A stretch of 64,000 bases of DNA from an uncultured Gammaproteobacteria bacterium (GCA_964512695.1 CAZEJU010000001.1:7803-71802); one strand, 5' to 3'. Counted from the stretch's first letter, positions 3,565 through 59,071 are shown. A program made the numbers and translations. Notes: a model not told the origin generated them from the letters alone.

Positions 3565-5414
3565 TGGAAAAGTTTATTGTAAACAAATGCCAGTCGTTCT
3601 CTTCTGGTACGCTGATAATGAAGTTCATCAACAGGAACGTAAATATATTTCGTTAATGGACAGTTAGCATCATCCATATGTTTATGTGATTCATTAATTT
3701 GTTTGAGAACGCTTTTTAAGGCCTGCAGCGTCGTAGGATAGAAGTTTTTTGCACCTATTACTTCATAAAGACCAGTTTTTTTGAAAATCTCGACTACTTG
3801 TGACTTTACTGTGGAGAAGAATATTTTCTTTCTTGTAACACGAAGAGTTTCTATAAAACCCGCTAGCAATTCTTCACCAGTTGCATCTATTTCGTTAATA
3901 CCGTTCGCAGAAAAAATAATATGCGTTACATGAGGATGTTGTGATAAATATCTAATAATTTCGTTTTCAAAAAAAGTTGCATTTGCGAAAAAAAGAGGAG
4001 CATCGAGACGTACAACAGCTATGTTTTCACATTGATCTAGATTATATAACTTATAATCATGTAAAAAACCATCTTTATACATAGATAAGAAAGCCACCTT
4101 AGGGCGTGTACTTCGAAAAACAAAATGTCCTATCGAAAAAACAATTCCAAGTAACAGTCCTTTCTCTAAGTCGGGCGCGAAGTATAACGTACCGAAGAAA
4201 GTTAATATTGCTGCAATACCATCATATAAACTAACACTAATAATAGGTTTAATTTTAGAAAAATCTATTAACGTTGAAACAGAGATGATGATAATCGCAG
4301 CGAGAACAACTTTTGGTAAATAGTAGAGTAAAGGAGTAAAAAACAGTAATGTGATAAGCACCATAAAAGAGGTAAAAAAACTAGAAAGCCATGTTTTAGC
4401 TCCCGCCTGATAATTAAGTGCTGTTCGAGAAAAAGAGCCTGAAACAGGATAACTAAGGCTAAATGAGCCTACGGCGTTCGCTATGCCTTGACCTATTAGT
4501 TCTTTATTCGGATCTAGCCGCTCTTTGGTCTTTAGAGCAATTGCTTGTGCTACAGAAACAGATTCTGTAAACCCTATAAGGGACATCGTAATAACAGGTA
4601 TAATTAAATGTCCTAGCACACCAGAATCAAAACGGGGAATGCCAATTATAGGTAAACCGTTTGGAATTGTCCCAACCAGAGCTACTGGATAGTTTAAAAA
4701 TTGTACAATGACAGAAAGCACGACAACAGTTATAAGCACATAAGGTATGTTCCGATTAATTTTTCGTAATATAAGCATCCAAGCGACAGCTATGCAACCT
4801 AGTATAAATGTCTGCCAATGAATTGCTGTTATAGCCTTTTGGAATAAAGCTATTATAGTTTGATAATGATGTTCCTGGTTAGGAACACTAATACCGAAAA
4901 AAGCTGATAGCTGTGTAGTAGCGATTATTAATGCCGCAGCATTCGTAAACGCATAAATAACAGGATGTGAAAGAAAACTAACAAGTCCCCCTAATTTCAA
5001 TGTACCAAGAAGAATTTGGAATAATCCTAATAAACAAGCTAAGAGAACAATATTTGAAATGTATTCGTTCGATCCGAGGGGACTAATGGGCGAAACAGCC
5101 GATAACGCTAAGAGAGATAAAACTGCGACAGGACCTGTTGCCAGCTGAGCGCTTGAACCAAATAATGCAGCTAAAAAAGGAGGTAATAAAGCTGCGTACA
5201 GTCCGTAATGTGGGGGCAAACCTGCCAGCTGAGCATACGCTAATGATTGGGGGATCAATACTAGACCCACTGTTATACCTGCAATAATATCTGCACGTAA
5301 AGTTACCTTATGGAGAAAAGGCCGGTAGACTTTAGCTAAAAATGAAGTGTTTCCTGGAAGTTGTTTCATTCTTTTCCTTATTACTAGCTTATCACAAGAT
5401 TTTTTCTCGCTCAA
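3561..5414 (-). CDS. SulP-family anion permease with C-terminal STAS domain
   Basis: Multiple TM segments; DIIAGITVGLVLIPQSLAYA SulP signature region; C-terminal STAS-like domain. Confidence 0.7.
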   Translation of the reverse strand: MSEKKSCDKLVIRKRMKQLPGNTSFLAKVYRPFLHKVTLRADIIAGITVGLVLIPQSLAYAQLAGLPPHYGLYAALLPPFLAALFGSSAQLATGPVAVLSLLALSAVSPISPLGSNEYISNIVLLACLLGLFQILLGTLKLGGLVSFLSHPVIYAFTNAAALIIATTQLSAFFGISVPNQEHHYQTIIALFQKAITAIHWQTFILGCIAVAWMLILRKINRNIPYVLITVVVLSVIVQFLNYPVALVGTIPNGLPIIGIPRFDSGVLGHLIIPVITMSLIGFTESVSVAQAIALKTKERLDPNKELIGQGIANAVGSFSLSYPVSGSFSRTALNYQAGAKTWLSSFFTSFMVLITLLFFTPLLYYLPKVVLAAIIIISVSTLIDFSKIKPIISVSLYDGIAAILTFFGTLYFAPDLEKGLLLGIVFSIGHFVFRSTRPKVAFLSMYKDGFLHDYKLYNLDQCENIAVVRLDAPLFFANATFFENEIIRYLSQHPHVTHIIFSANGINEIDATGEELLAGFIETLRVTRKKIFFSTVKSQVVEIFKKTGLYEVIGAKNFYPTTLQALKSVLKQINESHKHMDDANCPLTKYIYVPVDELHYQRTRRERLAFVYNKLFH

Positions 5415-12602: not shown

Positions 12603-12690
12603 TTTGAGCGGGAGACGGGTAGTCCGATTAACATCGGACTCTCTTCTTTGAGCGGGAGACGGATAGTCCGATTAACATCGGACCCTCTTC
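12603..12690 (-). repeat. two tandem 44-bp degenerate copies of the 3' half of tRNA-Gly (T-arm replaced by a GUCCGAU..AUCGGAC hairpin)
   Basis: Units 12603-12646 and 12647-12690 are near-identical to each other and repeat the tRNA-Gly 3' end (...CCCGUCUCCCGCUCAAA). Confidence 0.6.
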
Positions 12691-12692
12691 TT

Positions 12693-12765
12693 TGAGCGGG
12701 AGACGGGTATCGCACCCGCGACCTCTTCCTTGGCAAGGAAGCATTCTACTGCTGAACTACTCCCG
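12693..12765 (-). tRNA. tRNA-Gly (anticodon GCC) with non-canonical D-loop (AGCAGUA, no G18G19) and T-loop (UGCGAUA)
   Basis: Cloverleaf closely parallels E. coli tRNA-Gly(GCC): acceptor GCGGGAG/CUCCCGC, anticodon loop UUGCCAA, discriminator U. Confidence 0.65.
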
Positions 12766-12846
12766 CAGTATCTCGCATTATAGCAAATTGACCTATAAAT
12801 AAAAAACCCCTTTACAAAATCATAAAATTTATCTTATCCTAAATAT

Positions 12847-46195: not shown

Positions 46196-47315
46196 TGTTA
46201 TCCTTAAGCCTATGGAAGAGCGATTATTAACAATAAAAAATAATGCACTACCTCTCATATTCGATGCTGAATCACTTAAGGAACTTGAAGCAGCAAGGAT
46301 TCAGATTTTAGGAAAAAATGGAACATTAACTCTTATAATGAAGGAAATAGCGAAAGCTGATCCAGAAGACCGGCCGAGATTCGGAAAGGCAGCAAATGAA
46401 ATAAAAAGTGTTCTTGAAAATGCAATCTCTGAAAAATTATCAGACCTCAACCGTCAGCAGACAGATCAATTCTCCAGCAAAAAAGTAAAATTGGATGTCA
46501 CAGAACCTGGAATCCGGCCGCAGTTAGGGCATCTCCATCTTATTACACAAGCAATTTATGAAATTACTACTATTTTTGAGAAAATAGGTTTTACACGTGT
46601 CCGATACCCTGAAGTAGAGTGGGATTGGTTTGCATTCGAGGCATTAAACTTTCCTGAAAACCACCCAGCCAGGGATGACTGGGAAACTTTTTTTATAAAA
46701 GAAAAACCAGATCCCAAACTCGGTCCTATGCTACTTACTCCACACACCTCATCAGGACAAGTAAGAGAAATGCAAAAACACATGGAACAAAAGTTAAAAG
46801 TCAAAAGTCAAAAGTCAAAAGTTCAAGAAAATGAAGTTAACACAATTAATATTAAAATGTTAAATATTGCGAAGTGTTATCGCCGTCAATCTGATGTATC
46901 CCATACACCTATGTTTCACCAGTTCGAAGGATTGGTCGTAGGAAAGGATATAGCAATTACACATCTAAAAGGAACTTTGGATTACTTCGTAAGATCATAT
47001 TTCGGAGAGAATAGGAAAGCCCGTATTCGACCCTATCATTTTCAATTCACTGAACCTTCATTCGAAGTTGATGTTTCATGTGGGGTTTGTAATGGTAACG
47101 GATGCAGATTATGTAAAGCTGGATGGCTGGAGATGGGCGGAGCAGGTATGGTACACCCTAATGTACTAAAAGCTGGAGGAATAGACCCTAAAGAATATAC
47201 TGGTTTCGCGTTCGGATGGGGAGTAGAAAGAGTACTGATGATGAAAGAAGGAATTGAAATAGATGATTTACGATTGCTGTATTCGAATAAACTAGAATTT
47301 CTTGAACAGTTCTAA
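46182..47315 (+). CDS. pheS: phenylalanyl-tRNA synthetase alpha subunit (with ~19-aa in-frame insertion KLKVKSQKSKVQ...)
   Basis: HTPMFHQFEGL, FTEPSFEVD and GWGVERVLMM class II motifs. The insertion is encoded by the repeat aaaagttaaaagtcaaaagtcaaaagttcaag. Confidence 0.85.
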   Translation: MENKYVILKPMEERLLTIKNNALPLIFDAESLKELEAARIQILGKNGTLTLIMKEIAKADPEDRPRFGKAANEIKSVLENAISEKLSDLNRQQTDQFSSKKVKLDVTEPGIRPQLGHLHLITQAIYEITTIFEKIGFTRVRYPEVEWDWFAFEALNFPENHPARDDWETFFIKEKPDPKLGPMLLTPHTSSGQVREMQKHMEQKLKVKSQKSKVQENEVNTINIKMLNIAKCYRRQSDVSHTPMFHQFEGLVVGKDIAITHLKGTLDYFVRSYFGENRKARIRPYHFQFTEPSFEVDVSCGVCNGNGCRLCKAGWLEMGGAGMVHPNVLKAGGIDPKEYTGFAFGWGVERVLMMKEGIEIDDLRLLYSNKLEFLEQF

Positions 47316-54419: not shown

Positions 54420-55760
54420 CTACTTTACTATTGGGATGAAAGCCGACAGTTGTAACCCATTGATATAATTTTGCTTTTTTTCATCTTTTTTTCCTTCTCT
54501 TCCTAACGTGTTTAATTTTATTAACAAATATTTCTTTTGCAGAAGTTCAGCAAGTTTCGCGAAACGTTTTAGATTATTCCAACTCTCAAAAACTTTTTTC
54601 GGATTTTGAAACTCTGATGCCAGTGCAGAAACTTCTGGTGTATCTTTAGCTTCCTCTAGTAATTGTATGCAAGTCTCCCAATTCGTTAGGATTGTTTGAG
54701 CAATAGGAATAAAAAAGTCATAAGAGGTATATTCAGCTACCTCATCATCATCGCTCAACTTATACCTTCCACGGTCAAGTGAAACTTGATGGAGAATATT
54801 TGCCCAGAATTCATCAGGTGTCAGACCACTGACTTCATATAGCTTTAAGACATCTGGAAATGCATGGATTGCATCATGGGTACTTATATCTTGTTCAAAT
54901 GTTGCTTCATGAGTTTTTGGATCAAGGTGATAGCGTCGTATATATTTAAACATTCTATCATAACCAAATATTTCTCCTGCTGCTCTGAAATTAGTAATGT
55001 CTAACTCCTTCCATTCATTGATCCATGATTCTAAGTTTTTTGATCCACTAGTTATTGCATCAAATGCTCTTTTAAAATCTTCTGAAGATCTTAAGTTAAG
55101 AATGTCAATTCCCGCTTTCTTTACAAACTCTGCATCTATAGGAGATATACCGACTTTATGTGCATAATCAATTTCACTCCTTGTTAAACCAGAAGGTTCA
55201 ATAATTTTATTTAACAAAGCGTAAGCATGATCAAACGGTAAGACATATTCACAAATTGCATAAAGATCTGAGAAGGAATTAACGTTATATGATGCAAAAA
55301 GAGATTGAAGCTGCGGTGGCATATCCTTTTTATATTCTTCTAATAAACCTTTTGAATCGATATCTTTGAACACCTGCATGATCTGACCATTTAGATCGGA
55401 CTCTCTTCCGTAGTTTGTTATTAAGAAATTGGAAAGTACGTTTAAAGGGGGAGGTGTCTGGGAGTGATCATAAATATATTTATAAAAATCAAACCTTTTA
55501 ACTTGTCTAGACCCAGTTCTATTATCATCAGTTAATAATTCATAGGTTTTAGCTGCCTCATCTGGTGTAAGAACTAGGCCATTATATTGAGTTTGTAATT
55601 CTTCTACTAACTTTGTATTATCTTCTCCTTCGACTGTGGAAAATTTTCTAAAAAGATCTTCGAATTTTGCTTTTCTTTCTATTTCAGCAGGATTAACTTC
55701 TACAACACTATTAGTATCTGATATCTGATATCTGATATCTGATATCGACAATATCTTCAT
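54420..55760 (-). CDS. hypothetical protein
   Basis: 446-aa ORF. Divergent from the 56332 promoter. Confidence 0.3.
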   Translation of the reverse strand: MKILSISDIRYQISDTNSVVEVNPAEIERKAKFEDLFRKFSTVEGEDNTKLVEELQTQYNGLVLTPDEAAKTYELLTDDNRTGSRQVKRFDFYKYIYDHSQTPPPLNVLSNFLITNYGRESDLNGQIMQVFKDIDSKGLLEEYKKDMPPQLQSLFASYNVNSFSDLYAICEYVLPFDHAYALLNKIIEPSGLTRSEIDYAHKVGISPIDAEFVKKAGIDILNLRSSEDFKRAFDAITSGSKNLESWINEWKELDITNFRAAGEIFGYDRMFKYIRRYHLDPKTHEATFEQDISTHDAIHAFPDVLKLYEVSGLTPDEFWANILHQVSLDRGRYKLSDDDEVAEYTSYDFFIPIAQTILTNWETCIQLLEEAKDTPEVSALASEFQNPKKVFESWNNLKRFAKLAELLQKKYLLIKLNTLGREGKKDEKKQNYINGLQLSAFIPIVK

Positions 55761-55810: not shown

Positions 55811-55839
55811 TTGACGTACTATAGGGAATATAGTATCAT
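55811..55839 (+). promoter_or_regulatory. sigma70-like promoter TTGACG-N17-TATCAT
   Basis: Read directly from the sequence. Confidence 0.5.
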
Positions 55840-55845
55840 TATTTA

Positions 55846-56331
55846 ACAATTTATAAAGGCTATGACGAAGTCAAAGTAGTTTTCGCAGAGTGACACCAGA
55901 GAGAAGACGTCGCTGCAAGATCTTCCGTATCTTCGAAAATGAATTACGCTTCTGAGCTGTATGCCGAATCCGTTAACCGATGGATAGGCAGAACCGGGTT
56001 CGCACCGTGATAGCGAAAGAATGTGTCGCAGAAGAAGTGGAGCATTCGAAAATAAGCGTTTATCGTATTACTTCGAATCCCTTCATAAGGGATTTTTTAT
56101 TGCTAAGATAAGCGAAACCGAGGTGGTACCACGGAGAAAAATTAAAAGGTAAAAGGTAAAAATTGTATAAGGAAAGATAGTAGTAATTTTACTTTGGACT
56201 TTTGACTTTACACTTTTAACTTTCTTGTTCCGTCCTTGAGAATCATTATTGTTCGAGTGAAGTGAGAGTTATTTTTTACACATAAACTTCTCATTTTGTT
56301 CGAAGAATAGTATTTCTGGGACGGTTTTTTT
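55846..56331 (+). ncRNA. T-box riboswitch-like leader (AGGUGGUACCACGG) with an ~85-nt palindromic insertion and GGGACGG+T7 abutting the start codon
   Basis: AGGUGGUACCACGG at 56121-56134 matches the T-box core AGGGUGGUACCGCGG. Downstream CCGUCCUUG (56229-37) can pair with ACGG/CGAGG, forming an antiterminator, and also with GGGACGG (56318-24), forming the terminator. Confidence 0.45.
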
Positions 56332-57711
56332 ATGAAAGACAATGTACTATCAACTGAGCAAGAACAAGAAAACGAGTTAGAGATGCATGAAGCTTTCCAC
56401 AAGCAAGTACATGCAGTTCTAGAATCTGAAGACAGATTCAGAAAAGCTGAAAGAACAACGAGAATTGGCCTTGAAGCCGAATATAGTGTCATAAATGCAA
56501 CGTGTGATCAAGTAGACCAAACAGTCAGAGATCAAATTATTGAAGACAATAGAGACTTCGCTACCCAAGAGTTAGGGGCAGCACAAATTGAATTACGAAC
56601 TGACCCTATTATCCTTTCTGATGGAGGAATCTGGCAGGTATTTGACCAGATGGCATCTAGAGATGACGCTATAAGGAATGCGGCACATAGACGGGGTGCG
56701 CGTATACTGAGAAGCGGCACAAACCCCTTAGTCGATCTTCATGACATACTAAGAACTGATAAACCAAAATACCGGCAAGTACCTGATTTCCATAATAGAA
56801 AGAGAAAGTTTGGCACAGACACAACAATTGGCAATGGAAAAAGAGTTGATGTAGGAGACGCTGCTGTAGTTGCACTCTTAAACTCTTTGCAGACGAATAT
56901 AGAAGCTGTAGATTTCGCAGATGCCACAGATAAATTAAACAGATCGTTAATGATTGGACCGTATGTTACTGCAGTCAGTTCCGGGGCACGGTATATCGCT
57001 CATCAAGACGCAGGCTTAGCTGATTTACGAATTCTTGCTTGGGAAACGAGTCATGACACGAGAACTGACTCAGAGAGAACACTAGGTGAAAAAACCAGAG
57101 TCGGACTGCCAGCACGATACTATACTGATGTAAAGGATTACTTTACACAAGTGGGATCATATCCATTTATTCTCCATAATCCAGAGGCAGCACTTCAAAT
57201 AGGAATCGGTCTTCATTGGAGAGATACACGGTTAAAAGTAATAGGGGACAGCCTTGTGGTAGAATTCCGTCCCATATCTGCACAGCCAACATCTGCAGAA
57301 AATGTAGCTTCTGCTTTATTTTATACAGGAAGACTACATTGGTCTCAAGCCACAAACGAACCATTGCTGCCGTTTGATAAAGTAGAACATAATAGAAAAC
57401 AAGCACTACACGAAGGCCCTAGAGGGACTATGTACTATACAGAAGACAATAATGTACAGCGATATAAAGCTCCAGAAATCATAAAACTAGAATTAGCGAG
57501 AGCAAAACATGGATTAGAGATGATAGGTTGTCACCCAAAAGATATTGAACCATTCTTTTCAGTTCTAGAAAAAAATCTCGATGAAGGTACACCTGCTGAA
57601 CGGATGCACAATGTCGTATCACGTCTCACAGAAAATGTTTCTGAGAAAGATAAAAAAGAGGCTACACATGATGCTCTTATCACAGCCATTCAAGTCTTAC
57701 AATTCGTATGA
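56332..57711 (+). CDS. GCS2/YbdK-like carboxylate-amine ligase family protein
   Basis: RIGLEAEYSVI, AAQIELRTDP and HWRDTRLKVIGDSLVVEFRP parallel the YbdK motifs LGIELEMQVV, ELATDV and HWDIRP..GTVEVR. Confidence 0.55.
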   Translation: MKDNVLSTEQEQENELEMHEAFHKQVHAVLESEDRFRKAERTTRIGLEAEYSVINATCDQVDQTVRDQIIEDNRDFATQELGAAQIELRTDPIILSDGGIWQVFDQMASRDDAIRNAAHRRGARILRSGTNPLVDLHDILRTDKPKYRQVPDFHNRKRKFGTDTTIGNGKRVDVGDAAVVALLNSLQTNIEAVDFADATDKLNRSLMIGPYVTAVSSGARYIAHQDAGLADLRILAWETSHDTRTDSERTLGEKTRVGLPARYYTDVKDYFTQVGSYPFILHNPEAALQIGIGLHWRDTRLKVIGDSLVVEFRPISAQPTSAENVASALFYTGRLHWSQATNEPLLPFDKVEHNRKQALHEGPRGTMYYTEDNNVQRYKAPEIIKLELARAKHGLEMIGCHPKDIEPFFSVLEKNLDEGTPAERMHNVVSRLTENVSEKDKKEATHDALITAIQVLQFV

Positions 57712-57723
57712 TATACTTTCGAT

Positions 57724-58920
57724 ATGGATAAAATAGAAGAAGTACTCACCAGAGGAGTTGCAAACATTATTCCAGGAAAACAAGTCCTAAAGGACGTTTT
57801 AACTTCAGGTAGAAAAATAAATATCTATCTCGGTATCGATCCTACAGCACCGAGAATCCATCTCGGTCATGCAGTTTCTATTCGAAAACTACAAAACTTC
57901 GTCGACTTAGGTCATAAAGTAACATTTCTTATTGGTAATTTTACTTCGCTTATCGGCGATACCTCTGATAAGGATTCAGAAAGGCCCATTCTCACAGAAA
58001 AAGAAATAGAACAAAACTTCCAGACATATAAAGAACAAGCAGAGAAGTTACTTGATTTTTCAAAAGTACACATAGTACGTAACAGAGATTGGTTAAATAC
58101 ATTAACATTTGCCGAAATTGTACGATTAACACAAAACTTTTCAGTTAATGACTTTATCAGTAGAGAGTTAATTAGAAAACGTTTAGATGAAGGCAAACGT
58201 GTACGACTCGATGAGGTACTCTATCCAATTATGCAGGGATATGACAGTTATTTTATGGATACAGATCTACAGATAGGGGGTACTGATCAAACGTTTAATA
58301 TGCAAGCTGGGAGAACATTACAAAAAGTGATGAGAAATAAAGAATCTTTTGTCTTATCTACTGTTTTCCTAACAGGAACAGATGGTCGAAAAATGAGTAA
58401 ATCGTGGGGGAATGCAATCTGGATAAGCGATTCAGCTGAAGATATGTTTGCGAAAGTAATGGCTGTCAGAGATGACCTTCTCCTAGAATATTTCTTATTA
58501 GCTACAAATGTCCCCTTACACCAGGTCGAGGCTATAAAAGAACGGTTACAATCCGGTGCAAATCCTATGGAAATTAAAAAAGAACTCGCTTTTATAATTG
58601 TCGAGGAATTACATGATAAAACTGCCGCGGTAGCAGCTCAAGAAAAATTCGAAAAAACTGTACAGAACAGAGAATTACCCGAAGAGATACCTGTGGTCAT
58701 TATTCCGGAAACACTACAATCAGAAATTGCTATTGCAGACGTTTTAAGCACACTGGGATTAGTAGAAAGTAAATCAGAAGCCAAACGTTTAGTAGATCAA
58801 GGTGGTGTGGAAATAGATGGACAAAAAGTAACGAATACAAATGAAATAATTAGTGTAAAAGATGATATGATAATAAAAGTAGGAAAGAGAAGAATTGTTA
58901 AACTGACAACGACGAAATAA
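57724..58920 (+). CDS. tyrS: tyrosyl-tRNA synthetase
   Basis: HIGH-type motif (RIHLGH), KMSKS, C-terminal S4-like domain. Lies 12 nt downstream of 56332, so it is probably co-transcribed. Confidence 0.85.
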   Translation: MDKIEEVLTRGVANIIPGKQVLKDVLTSGRKINIYLGIDPTAPRIHLGHAVSIRKLQNFVDLGHKVTFLIGNFTSLIGDTSDKDSERPILTEKEIEQNFQTYKEQAEKLLDFSKVHIVRNRDWLNTLTFAEIVRLTQNFSVNDFISRELIRKRLDEGKRVRLDEVLYPIMQGYDSYFMDTDLQIGGTDQTFNMQAGRTLQKVMRNKESFVLSTVFLTGTDGRKMSKSWGNAIWISDSAEDMFAKVMAVRDDLLLEYFLLATNVPLHQVEAIKERLQSGANPMEIKKELAFIIVEELHDKTAAVAAQEKFEKTVQNRELPEEIPVVIIPETLQSEIAIADVLSTLGLVESKSEAKRLVDQGGVEIDGQKVTNTNEIISVKDDMIIKVGKRRIVKLTTTK

Positions 58921-59071
58921 TATGAACTTCGCACGAAAACATCAAAAAATATTCAGAGTGATCATGCTTATTGCTATTATAGCGATGATTCTGTCATCAT
59001 TCCTCATGTACCTACCATACTTCTAACCCTTAGTTTGAAAACTAAAACAAGGCTAAAATAATCTGCTACAA

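Follow-up and report, generated by a model that had tools for sequence, protein, structure and literature searches.

A probable tyrosine T-box leader with an expanded 3′ domain upstream of an uncharacterised ligase gene and tyrS in a Patescibacteria/CPR bacterium

T-boxes are textbook Gram-positive riboswitches, and the tyrS leader of Bacillus subtilis is the archetype of the class-I transcriptional T-box leaders of Firmicutes. Several variations on this theme have been described. In staphylococcal glyS, an additional stem of 25–50 nt, stem Sa, modulates read-through as well as tRNA selectivity and is functional (PMC9177973), and for glyQS, a pausing role of Stem III has been proposed (PMC5570125, PMC6197855). 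In class-II T-boxes of actinobacteria, such as that of ileS, Stem I is truncated and the sequestrator has no U-run (PMC11297988; Sherwood et al. 2015, as cited in PMC7778990). Leaders of more than 500 nt were discarded from TBDB as too long (PMC7778990). In the literature we searched, we found no published work on T-boxes in Saccharibacteria, Patescibacteria or the candidate phyla radiation (CPR).

The leader described here was found in a 64,000-nt stretch of DNA, hereafter the window. It occupies positions 55811 to 56331, between a divergent open reading frame and a gene pair on the plus strand:

54420–55760, minus strand: 446-aa open reading frame, divergent from the leader
55811–55839, plus strand: sigma-70-type promoter TTGACG-17 nt-TATCAT (promoter scan, 10 of 12 matches), about 14 nt upstream of the start of the T-box model
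56332–57711, plus strand: gene for a 459-aa GCS2-superfamily carboxylate-amine-ligase-like protein of an uncharacterised CPR/DPANN family
57724–58920, plus strand: tyrS (tyrosyl-tRNA synthetase), 12 nt past the ligase stop codon

The next gene after tyrS is recG. The original prediction for this locus, made from its sequence, had proposed a T-box-like leader ahead of an operon of a GCS2-like ligase and tyrS. Both genes are as it described them: the ligase passes the Pfam GCS2 profile (PF04107, 29.2 bits, cut-off 21), the TyrRS assignment scores 227 bits, and the open reading frames place tyrS at the predicted distance of 12 nt. An independent terminator ahead of tyrS had been named as an observation that would speak against the proposal; we found neither a hairpin nor a terminator in the 12 nt that separate the ligase stop codon from the ATG of tyrS. 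The ligase has homologues in Patescibacteria/CPR bacteria (Saccharibacteria, Levybacteria) and DPANN archaea, and relatives of the TyrRS are annotated as Saccharimonadales or Patescibacteria; the host is an ultrasmall Patescibacteria/CPR bacterium. We read the leader as a real, tyrosine-specific T-box of about 485 nt, belonging to class I, which attenuates transcription and controls ligase and tyrS as a two-gene operon, and assign this reading a probability of about 0.75.

At gathering thresholds, an Rfam search of the 64-kb window returned only tRNAs. With permissive filters, the T-box model RF00230, whose gathering score is 93 bits, matched positions 55853–56072 with 58.2 bits (E-value 5e-12 when the region is searched, 4.5e-10 when the whole window is), and this was the sole T-box in the window. 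The Infernal check proposed with the original prediction thus yielded a significant match, at a score below the gathering threshold. The match covers Stem I to Stem III (55853–56050), beyond which the alignment puts the T-box core in the wrong place, at 56058–72. We attribute the shortfall in score to a 3′ domain that cannot be aligned across its insertions, and the failure of the model at the 3′ end to three expansions, namely a composite Stem IIIb, a 95-nt insert in the antiterminator loop and a long terminator. The sub-threshold score and the misplaced core count against our main reading. The original prediction mentioned neither the UAC specifier, the terminator-like hairpin in Stem IIIb nor the 95-nt terminator hairpin, and did not connect Stem IIIb and the long terminator with the low covariance score. 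Judged by its sequence, the leader appears to be correctly assigned to the T-box family in mechanism and in all sequence-defined features, at a score short of the Rfam threshold.

Five related T-boxes from ligase loci allowed the comparison of six leaders in all, including that of the window:

L010: RF00230 109 bits, bulge UGGU, specifier UAC
L037a: RF00230 101 bits, bulge UGGU, specifier UAC
L038: RF00230 76 bits, bulge UGGU, non-canonical specifier loop CUACUAUUCC
L037b: RF00230 63 bits, bulge UGGU, non-canonical specifier loop CUACUAUUCC
L007: RF00230 60 bits, bulge UGGU, specifier UAC

All six carry the UGGU bulge and four the UAC specifier, the specifiers of L038 and L037b being ambiguous. 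Like the window's leader, those of L037a, L037b, L038 and L007 have a comparable promoter just upstream. Three of the five relatives (63, 60 and 76 bits) miss the RF00230 threshold, as do four of the six leaders when the window is included; since these T-boxes share the same layout, sub-threshold scores are normal for the class.

The 5′ domain of the leader comprises the following elements:

55853–55957, plus strand: Stem I (RF00230 alignment, posterior probabilities mostly marked with an asterisk)
55945–55947, plus strand: specifier codon UAC (Tyr) in the RF00230 register, with GAA-U on its 5′ side and the purine G55948 on its 3′ side
55958–56013, plus strand: Stem II with GAA/AGUA S-turn motifs, and Stem IIA/B with the F-box-like sequence CCGUGAUAG (RF00230 alignment)

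Stem I has, at high posterior probability, a basal K-turn/GA motif (AUGA / UGAGC), a specifier loop (AGUA ... GAA-U-UAC-G), the AG bulge in the form AGAGA, and a distal loop. The specifier layout GAA-N-UAC recurs in L010 and L007, and L037a has CAA-U-UAC. In the following stems, GAA...AGUA and CGG...CCGUGAUAG are aligned to the model, the F-box differing from CCGUUA by one mismatch. The UAC specifier and the UGGU bulge both fit tRNA-Tyr (anticodon GUA, A73), and tyrS lies in the operon. CPR tRNA-Tyr genes end in A73, as seen in the L007 alignment; there is no tRNA-Tyr gene within the 64-kb window.

The 3′ domain holds the switch itself:

56120–56134, plus strand: T-box core, with the A1 5′ strand GAGG (56120–23), the bulge UGGUACC (56124–30) and the A2 5′ strand ACGG (56131–34)
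56135–56229, plus strand: A/U-rich 95-nt insert forming the antiterminator apical loop, with (UAAAAGG)x2.7 at 56143–61 and (ACUUUNN)x5 at 56187–56223 (TRF)
56230–56237, plus strand: shared switch strand CCGUCCUU, which can pair with the core (antiterminator) or with GGGACGG (terminator)
56230–56331, plus strand: terminator T2, a 95-nt hairpin with the base CCGUCCU / GGGACGG (56318–24) and a U7 run (56325–31) that abuts the start codon

The exact 14-nt core AGGUGGUACCACGG (AGGTGGTACCACGG) with its 7-nt bulge 5′-UGGNACC-3′ is found at 56121–56134, where the original prediction had put it, and RGGTGGNACCRCG has a single match on both strands of the 64 kb, against 0.10 expected by chance with at most one mismatch. 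The UGGU of the bulge reads the NCCA end of a tRNA with A73, and the earlier inference of such a tRNA agrees with the tyrosine specifier. The partner strand, expected about 95 nt downstream, is CCGTCCTTG at 56230–56238, 96 nt from the core. The A1 and A2 strands pair with CCGUCCUU at eight of eight positions, and CCGUCCU pairs with GGGACGG (56318–56324) at seven of seven, all in standard pairs, so that the partner overlaps the 5′ side of a GGGACGG-U7 element ending at the ATG of 56332, again as foreseen. Together with the RF00230 match and the exact core, these pairings bear out the claim of a T-box leader. The T2 hairpin folds with −36.9 kcal/mol (z = −6.1). For the region 56116–56331, the terminator fold has −57.0 and the antiterminator fold −48.0 kcal/mol, 9 kcal/mol apart, and as long as the 3′ strand of the terminator has not been made, an antiterminator-like pairing between core and CCGUCCUU gives the best fold. 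Antiterminator and more stable terminator with U-run are thus mutually exclusive through the strand 56230–56237, and the computed energetics are those expected for a T-box.

Compared with the class-I leaders of Firmicutes, the order of elements is the same (Stem I, Stem II, Stem IIA/B with F-box, Stem III, 14-nt core with a 7-nt UGGN bulge), as are the mutually exclusive antiterminator and terminator with U-run, the combination of UAC with UGGU, and the presence of tyrS in the operon. The differences are in the length of the leader (~485 nt), the 95-nt antiterminator loop, the 95-nt terminator and its U-run abutting the AUG, as well as in the second hairpin between F-box and core, which holds a terminator-like hairpin and U-run. 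Further, the first gene is an uncharacterised ligase, the host belongs to the CPR, and the score lies below the gathering threshold.

Transcription would start near 55846, from TTGACG-17-TATCAT, and the GUA anticodon of tRNA-Tyr would be read by the UAC specifier in Stem I. Having passed Stems II, IIA/B and IIIa, the polymerase would meet the IIIb hairpin and its U-run, which may provide time for the tRNA to dock. Pairing of UGGU to the ACCA end of uncharged tRNA-Tyr would have to await the synthesis of CCGUCCUU, 96 nt further on, at which point the A1 and A2 helices would close over the floppy heptamer-repeat insert, in analogy to staphylococcal stem Sa. With uncharged tRNA, the antiterminator would keep CCGUCCUU engaged, the long hairpin would still form in its upper part but end 7 nt before the U-run, and the polymerase would read into the ligase gene and tyrS. 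With charged tRNA, GGGACGG would capture CCGUCCU, giving a hairpin of −37 kcal/mol flush against U7, and transcription would stop. Should a read-through transcript refold, it too would present a very stable hairpin at a distance of 7 nt from its AUG. Owing to the two long inserts, the bulge and the terminator's 3′ strand are separated by about 195 nt, compared to about 40 nt in a typical T-box (PMC6197855), and we infer that this spacing lengthens the decision window.

Two hairpins, IIIa and IIIb, are located between the F-box and the core:

56019–56047, plus strand: hairpin IIIa, GAAUGUGUCGC...GUGGAGCAUUC (fold −9.7 kcal/mol, z = −3.8)
56057–56114, plus strand: composite hairpin IIIb (fold −16.3 kcal/mol, z = −3.4)
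56075–56101, plus strand: T1, the inner hairpin GAAUCCCUU-CAU-AAGGGAUUU followed by UUUAUU (terminator scan), upstream of the core

The IIIa consensus UGUGUCG...GGAGCA is kept in all six CPR leaders compared. In IIIb, an outer helix of CGUUUAUC (56057–64) and GAUAAGCG (56107–14) encloses the inner hairpin, a layout that is also seen in L037a, L037b, L038 and L007, formed by unrelated sequences. The second hairpin ends 5–7 nt before the core in each of the six leaders. A GC-rich inner stem with U5–U7, flagged by the terminator scan, is present in five of them (the window, L037a, L037b, L038 and L007), as the top or near-top match of the scan of each leader; the second hairpin of L010 has no U-run. 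L037b further carries an insertion of about 50 nt, with a duplicated CCUCGUCCUUAUAUUC, between its core and the 5′ strand of its terminator. A direct repeat, AAAAUAAGCG / AAGAUAAGCG (56049–58 / 56105–14), was considered as a target-site duplication flanking a hairpin in the IIIb region and dropped: one copy serves as the 3′ strand of the outer helix of IIIb, and the relatives have the same layout.

As IIIb lies upstream of the charge-sensing core, the core cannot control its hairpin and U-run. We infer that the element acts as a programmed pause or as a leaky first terminator or attenuator. A pause fits the proposal for Stem III of glyQS, likewise a hairpin just upstream of the core, where the polymerase is proposed to wait for tRNA (PMC5570125, PMC6197855). 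The element differs from Stem III of glyQS by its full terminator-like signature, a GC-rich stem with U5–U7 inside an outer helix. A terminator-like hairpin ahead of the core could also abort most transcripts before sensing, which speaks against our main reading.

The IIIb hairpin and U-run may also be a true first terminator, read through upon binding of tRNA to Stem I as a check of identity, with the core and the second terminator then checking charge. Such an arrangement would be compatible with the main reading and accords with the two-step tRNA binding of T-boxes (PMC6197855), with the scoring of the element as an intrinsic terminator in five of six leaders, and with the resemblance of T1 to 'G-rich stem + U7' elements before other genes in the window. 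A route for switching it is suggested by L037a and L037b, where the 3′ strand of IIIa (GGAGC) can pair with the 5′ strand of T1 (GCUCC) at −10 kcal/mol, a value that about 1% of shuffles reach. This alternative pairing is, however, not significant in the window, L038 and L007, and being significant only in L037a and L037b, it was dropped as a conserved anti-terminator for the IIIb hairpin. Moreover, L010 lacks the U-run, no structural route from Stem I-bound tRNA to T1 is evident, and T1 in the window is modest, at −8.9 kcal/mol with an interrupted U-run. We regard two successive tRNA checks as unlikely.

Could the expansions instead have broken the switch, so that what remains is a long 5′ UTR whose terminators or attenuators act constitutively? 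The sub-threshold Rfam score, the huge and weakly structured loop, the terminator-like hairpin ahead of the core and the existence of related tyrS genes without a T-box would all agree with a decaying relic. In the latter, the closest relatives of the TyrRS (L023–L027, 66–69% identical), the tyrS-recG synteny is kept, but neither a ligase gene nor a T-box was found before tyrS, even with permissive filters. T-box control is thus dispensable in the clade, which counts against the main reading as well; it is also sporadic for the module, as we found no T-box in seven long loci with ligase and tyrS. Against decay, the K-turn, specifier loop, AGAGA bulge, F-box-like element, 14-nt core and both sets of pairings (8/8 and 7/7) are intact, and the odd features of the leader recur in the five other CPR T-boxes with the same logic.

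The closest relative, L021, points in the same direction. Its ligase is 70% identical to that of the window and its tyrS also follows after 12 nt; it is the single close relative for a comparison of leaders, covering 101 nt of leader sequence. These have the same five heptamers in register, followed by CCCGUCCUUG. Despite the 30% divergence of the ligase protein, L021 keeps the switch strand CCGUCCUUG and the terminator pairing. Its terminator has been remodelled and is much shorter (~20 bp), yet pairing is maintained and U7-AUG again forms its end, from which we take the long terminator to be specific to the lineage of the window. A relic is, in our estimate, quite unlikely.

The terminator-like helix might mainly act on translation, by occluding the ribosome-binding region. 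The base of the hairpin lies 7 nt from the AUG, the final U-run leads straight into the start codon in the window, L010, L021 and L037b, and the 3′ strand of the helix has GGAGG, GAGG or AAGGA in L021, L037b and L010. A regulated helix that adjoins the start codon is shared with the class-II T-boxes of actinobacteria, making occlusion conceivable, but unlike these, the leader has a full, long, class-I-like Stem I and a terminator whose helix is followed by a perfect U7. GGGACGG is also a poor Shine-Dalgarno (SD) sequence in a genome where SD-like motifs precede 8 of 42 open reading frames (background 11%) and a U7 run often immediately precedes the start codon, and in L038 the U-run is about 50 nt upstream of the start codon. 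The rarity of SD-like motifs and the frequency of U7-AUG junctions weaken the case for SD sequestration by the terminator, which is possible though weakly supported, and we judge control mainly at translation to be very unlikely.

In the antiterminator loop, the original prediction saw a palindrome of about 85 nt, interpreted as a small mobile hairpin. A large insert is indeed present there, with 95 nt, but its inverted repeat is imperfect (24-nt arms, 75% complementary) and its best fold, at −13.3 kcal/mol, is no better than random (z = −0.08; 87 of 200 shuffled sequences reach the same stability or better). According to TRF, each arm consists of period-7 tandem repeats, a type that makes up 13 of the 45 TRF rows in the 64-kb window. 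The proposed search for further copies, run on the window, gave no second copy; the insert matches other A/T-rich repeats over only 25–33 nt, one of them a heptamer array in a coding region. This array, at 46788, is inside a 377-aa open reading frame, probably pheS, and a location at the 5′ end of the frame was ruled out. There are no terminal inverted repeats and no target-site duplication at 56135/56229. The multiple copies, stable hairpin, terminal repeats or polymorphism of a MITE or REP-like element were not seen in the window and in L021. Further, the 3′ arm is identical to that of L021 at 28 of 32 positions in the same register, whereas the two ligase genes are only 44% identical at codon third positions and 37% at four-fold-type sites, with 30% expected at random.

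As the 3′ arm is kept while silent sites are near saturation, the insert is old and inherited rather than mobile. That a palindromic MITE-like element was recently inserted into the loop of an otherwise canonical T-box, which would explain the inverted repeat and most of the extra spacing from the core to its partner, is highly improbable in view of the missing copies and termini, the repetitive arms and the arm shared with L021. The leader has rather been stretched by lineage-specific extra hairpins, and the insert seems to be an inherited expansion whose 3′ arm is apparently constrained.

By analogy, the closest precedent for this insert appears to be staphylococcal stem Sa. The two are topologically equivalent, being lineage-specific insertions that extend the A2 helix or the antiterminator loop and are kept within their lineage, and stem Sa does not abolish tRNA-dependent antitermination. 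The insert differs from stem Sa in its length of 95 nt, its heptamer repeats, the lack of significant predicted stability, the specificity for Tyr rather than Gly, and the phylum. A 95-nt loop without significant structure (z = −0.08) carries an entropic cost, a further point against our main reading; to our knowledge, no T-box with so large an antiterminator loop has been tested.

The ligase belongs to a family which our searches found confined to CPR bacteria and DPANN archaea; a genome search with the single ligase protein as query found no relatives. PF04107, the sole profile passed by the protein, is present in all but one of the 120 homologues listed. While this is shared with YbdK/GCS2 ligases, the protein is far below every NCBIfam cut-off (best score 36 bits against an equivalog cut-off of 371 for glutamate-cysteine ligase/YbdK), and a profile search of the PDB gave 21 bits to plant glutamate-cysteine ligase (GCL), with no close solved structure. 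Unlike YbdK/GCS2, the family is tied to tyrS and tRNA-Tyr, a linkage that is not known for YbdK or GshA.

We surveyed this linkage in 46 ligase loci with 229 kb of flanks. The ligase gene is adjoined by tyrS, tRNA-Tyr or a T-box with UGGU bulge in 17 of the 46, and tyrS is carried by 12 loci, where 0.15–0.4 would be expected (P < 1e-13). Of the 23 loci that span 6 kb or more, 14 have at least one tyrosine link. All nine neighbouring tRNA genes are for tyrosine, two of them assigned by hand from the sequence. These two are archaeal genes with introns, located some 30 nt before the ligase gene, which ARAGORN called tRNA-Asn; we rejected this call in favour of tRNA-Tyr (CU-GUA-GA loop, C1-G72, A73), on what we take to be the archaeal identity elements. 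Recurrent partners are an MR_MLE racemase/epimerase, a C26 gamma-glutamyl hydrolase and an unknown protein of about 300 aa or, alternatively, an AstE/AspA deacylase.

The T-box tracks the ligase and not tyrS: L023–L027 have tyrS but neither a ligase gene nor a T-box, and the T-boxes of L037, L010 and L007 precede ligase-family genes. Both T-boxes of L037 lie before GCS2-family paralogues, those of L010 and L007 before an AstE/AspA-type deacylase and the ligase. The linkage of the family points to a tyrosine-related function, and by the logic of a T-box the operon would raise the supply of charged tRNA-Tyr. One speculative fit is a route of ligation, epimerisation and hydrolysis for D-Tyr or conjugated Tyr.

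Taken jointly, a T-box subclass of Patescibacteria, with a terminator-like pause or first gate in Stem III and inserts that slow the charge decision, and tyrosine members of it which control a ligase-family pathway for tyrosine supply, are a tentative proposal that we hold with considerable doubt. If the subclass is real, long inserts in the antiterminator loop and terminator would suit a slow-growing cell with few tRNAs. If the pathway is, the ligase with MR_MLE and C26 proteins, or with the AstE/AspA deacylase, would be an unrecognised supply of tyrosine, possibly by conversion of D-Tyr or by salvage of acylated or gamma-glutamylated Tyr. CPR organisms are thought to be without amino-acid biosynthesis.

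With four of the six CPR T-boxes below the Rfam threshold, standard annotation will miss such leaders. The class shows how far the T-box scaffold may be stretched, tolerating a 95-nt loop, a 95-nt terminator and a terminator-like hairpin before the core, and would be a natural test of Stem III pausing and of the timing of the decision on tRNA charge. T-box specifiers are reliable functional labels, and a T-box for tyrosine before an uncharacterised ligase, combined with the genomic ties of the family to tyrS and tRNA-Tyr, offers a testable handle on these enzymes. In our view, this leader is most interesting for its CPR-specific architecture and for the ligase regulon linked to tyrosine, which was unexpected.

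In both CPR bacteria and DPANN archaea, genes of the GCS2-like ligase family show genomic linkage to parts of tyrosine translation. The loci behind this link are the ligase gene of the window (56332-57711) and, in other genomes, loci L002, L003, L004, L006, L007, L008, L010, L021, L028, L031, L034, L037, L038, L041, L047, L049 and L054. In 229 kb of flanking sequence, 12 tyrS genes lie near a GCS2-like ligase, where fewer than 0.4 would be expected, and the tRNA genes adjoining the ligase are all tRNA-Tyr (9 of 9, including two archaeal genes assigned by our own reading). Six T-boxes with a UGGU bulge precede members of the ligase family; their specifier is UAC in four and ambiguous in two. 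Recurrent partners of the ligase are MR_MLE, Peptidase_C26, a ~300-aa unknown protein, an AstE/AspA deacylase, GNAT and EamA.

The two archaeal tRNA genes are found in Woesearchaeota, where each contains an intron and lies about 30 nt 5' of the ligase gene:
L006 4853-4972, intron-containing tRNA
L008 4852-4974, intron-containing tRNA
ARAGORN called both as tRNA-Asn, an assignment that depends on a non-canonical intron position and that we rejected; the anticodon loop CU-GUA-GA, the C1-G72 pair and A73 indicate archaeal tRNA-Tyr.

In the bacterial locus L007, the gene order is Tyr T-box, tRNA-Tyr, AstE/AspA-like deacylase and ligase:
3593-4040, Tyr T-box (UAC, UGGU) to tRNA-Tyr gene
3915-3941, T-box terminator, followed by U7
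3955-4040, tRNA-Tyr gene, starting about 8 nt past the terminator
Since the tRNA gene directly follows the terminator, with deacylase and ligase next, the T-box-controlled transcript appears to include its own cognate tRNA gene.

The second T-box (b) of L037, a locus with two T-boxes before GCS2-family paralogues, has a doubled antiterminator 3' strand:
4349-4470, part of T-box b with the duplication
The two copies, CCUCGUCCUUAUAUUC, are at 4371-86 and 4417-32. Copy 1 is able to close a short antiterminator without competing with the terminator, which shares only copy 2. The duplication may act as a decoy or as a staged switch.

A relative lacking the ligase gene has a non-coding stretch of ~500 nt 5' of tyrS, for which an Rfam search gave no match:
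L026 4460-5001, non-coding
L027 1-472, non-coding

Of the 45 TRF rows for the window, 13 are period-7 repeats. A (CAAAAGT)x5 array (46788-46822), encoding EQKLKVKSQKSKVQ in frame within a 377-aa ORF that is probably pheS, is the sole notable match to the insert of the T-box leader. A perfect (TCAGATA)x4.6 array (55715-55746) covers codons 5-15 of an unannotatable 446-aa ORF (54420-55760, minus strand), divergent from the leader. Adding or losing one heptamer would throw the ORF out of frame, which makes it a candidate for slipped-strand phase variation.

Also in the window, a 44-nt unit, repeated 2.4 times (12603-12706), adjoins a tRNA gene:
12694-12766, minus strand, tRNA-Gly
It yields two additional tRNA-Gly 3' ends, each followed by the hairpin GTCCGATTAACATCGGAC. 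Integration at the tRNA gene may have left these copies as scars, or they may represent repeated terminators.

Two nucleotides past the tyrS stop codon starts a 34-codon ORF (58923-59027) for a hydrophobic peptide (MNFARKHQKIFRVIMLIAIIAMILSSFLMYLPYF), which precedes a promoter-like site of recG at 59035-59062. Terminator-like elements, a G-rich stem with U7, lie directly 5' of the ORF starts at 658, 23887, 25114, 32109, 33436 and 56332, and SD-like motifs are scarce, found upstream of 8 of 42 ORFs in the window against a background of 11%. Together, these two features suggest that intergenic regions are laid out very compactly and that initiation is for the most part independent of SD motifs.
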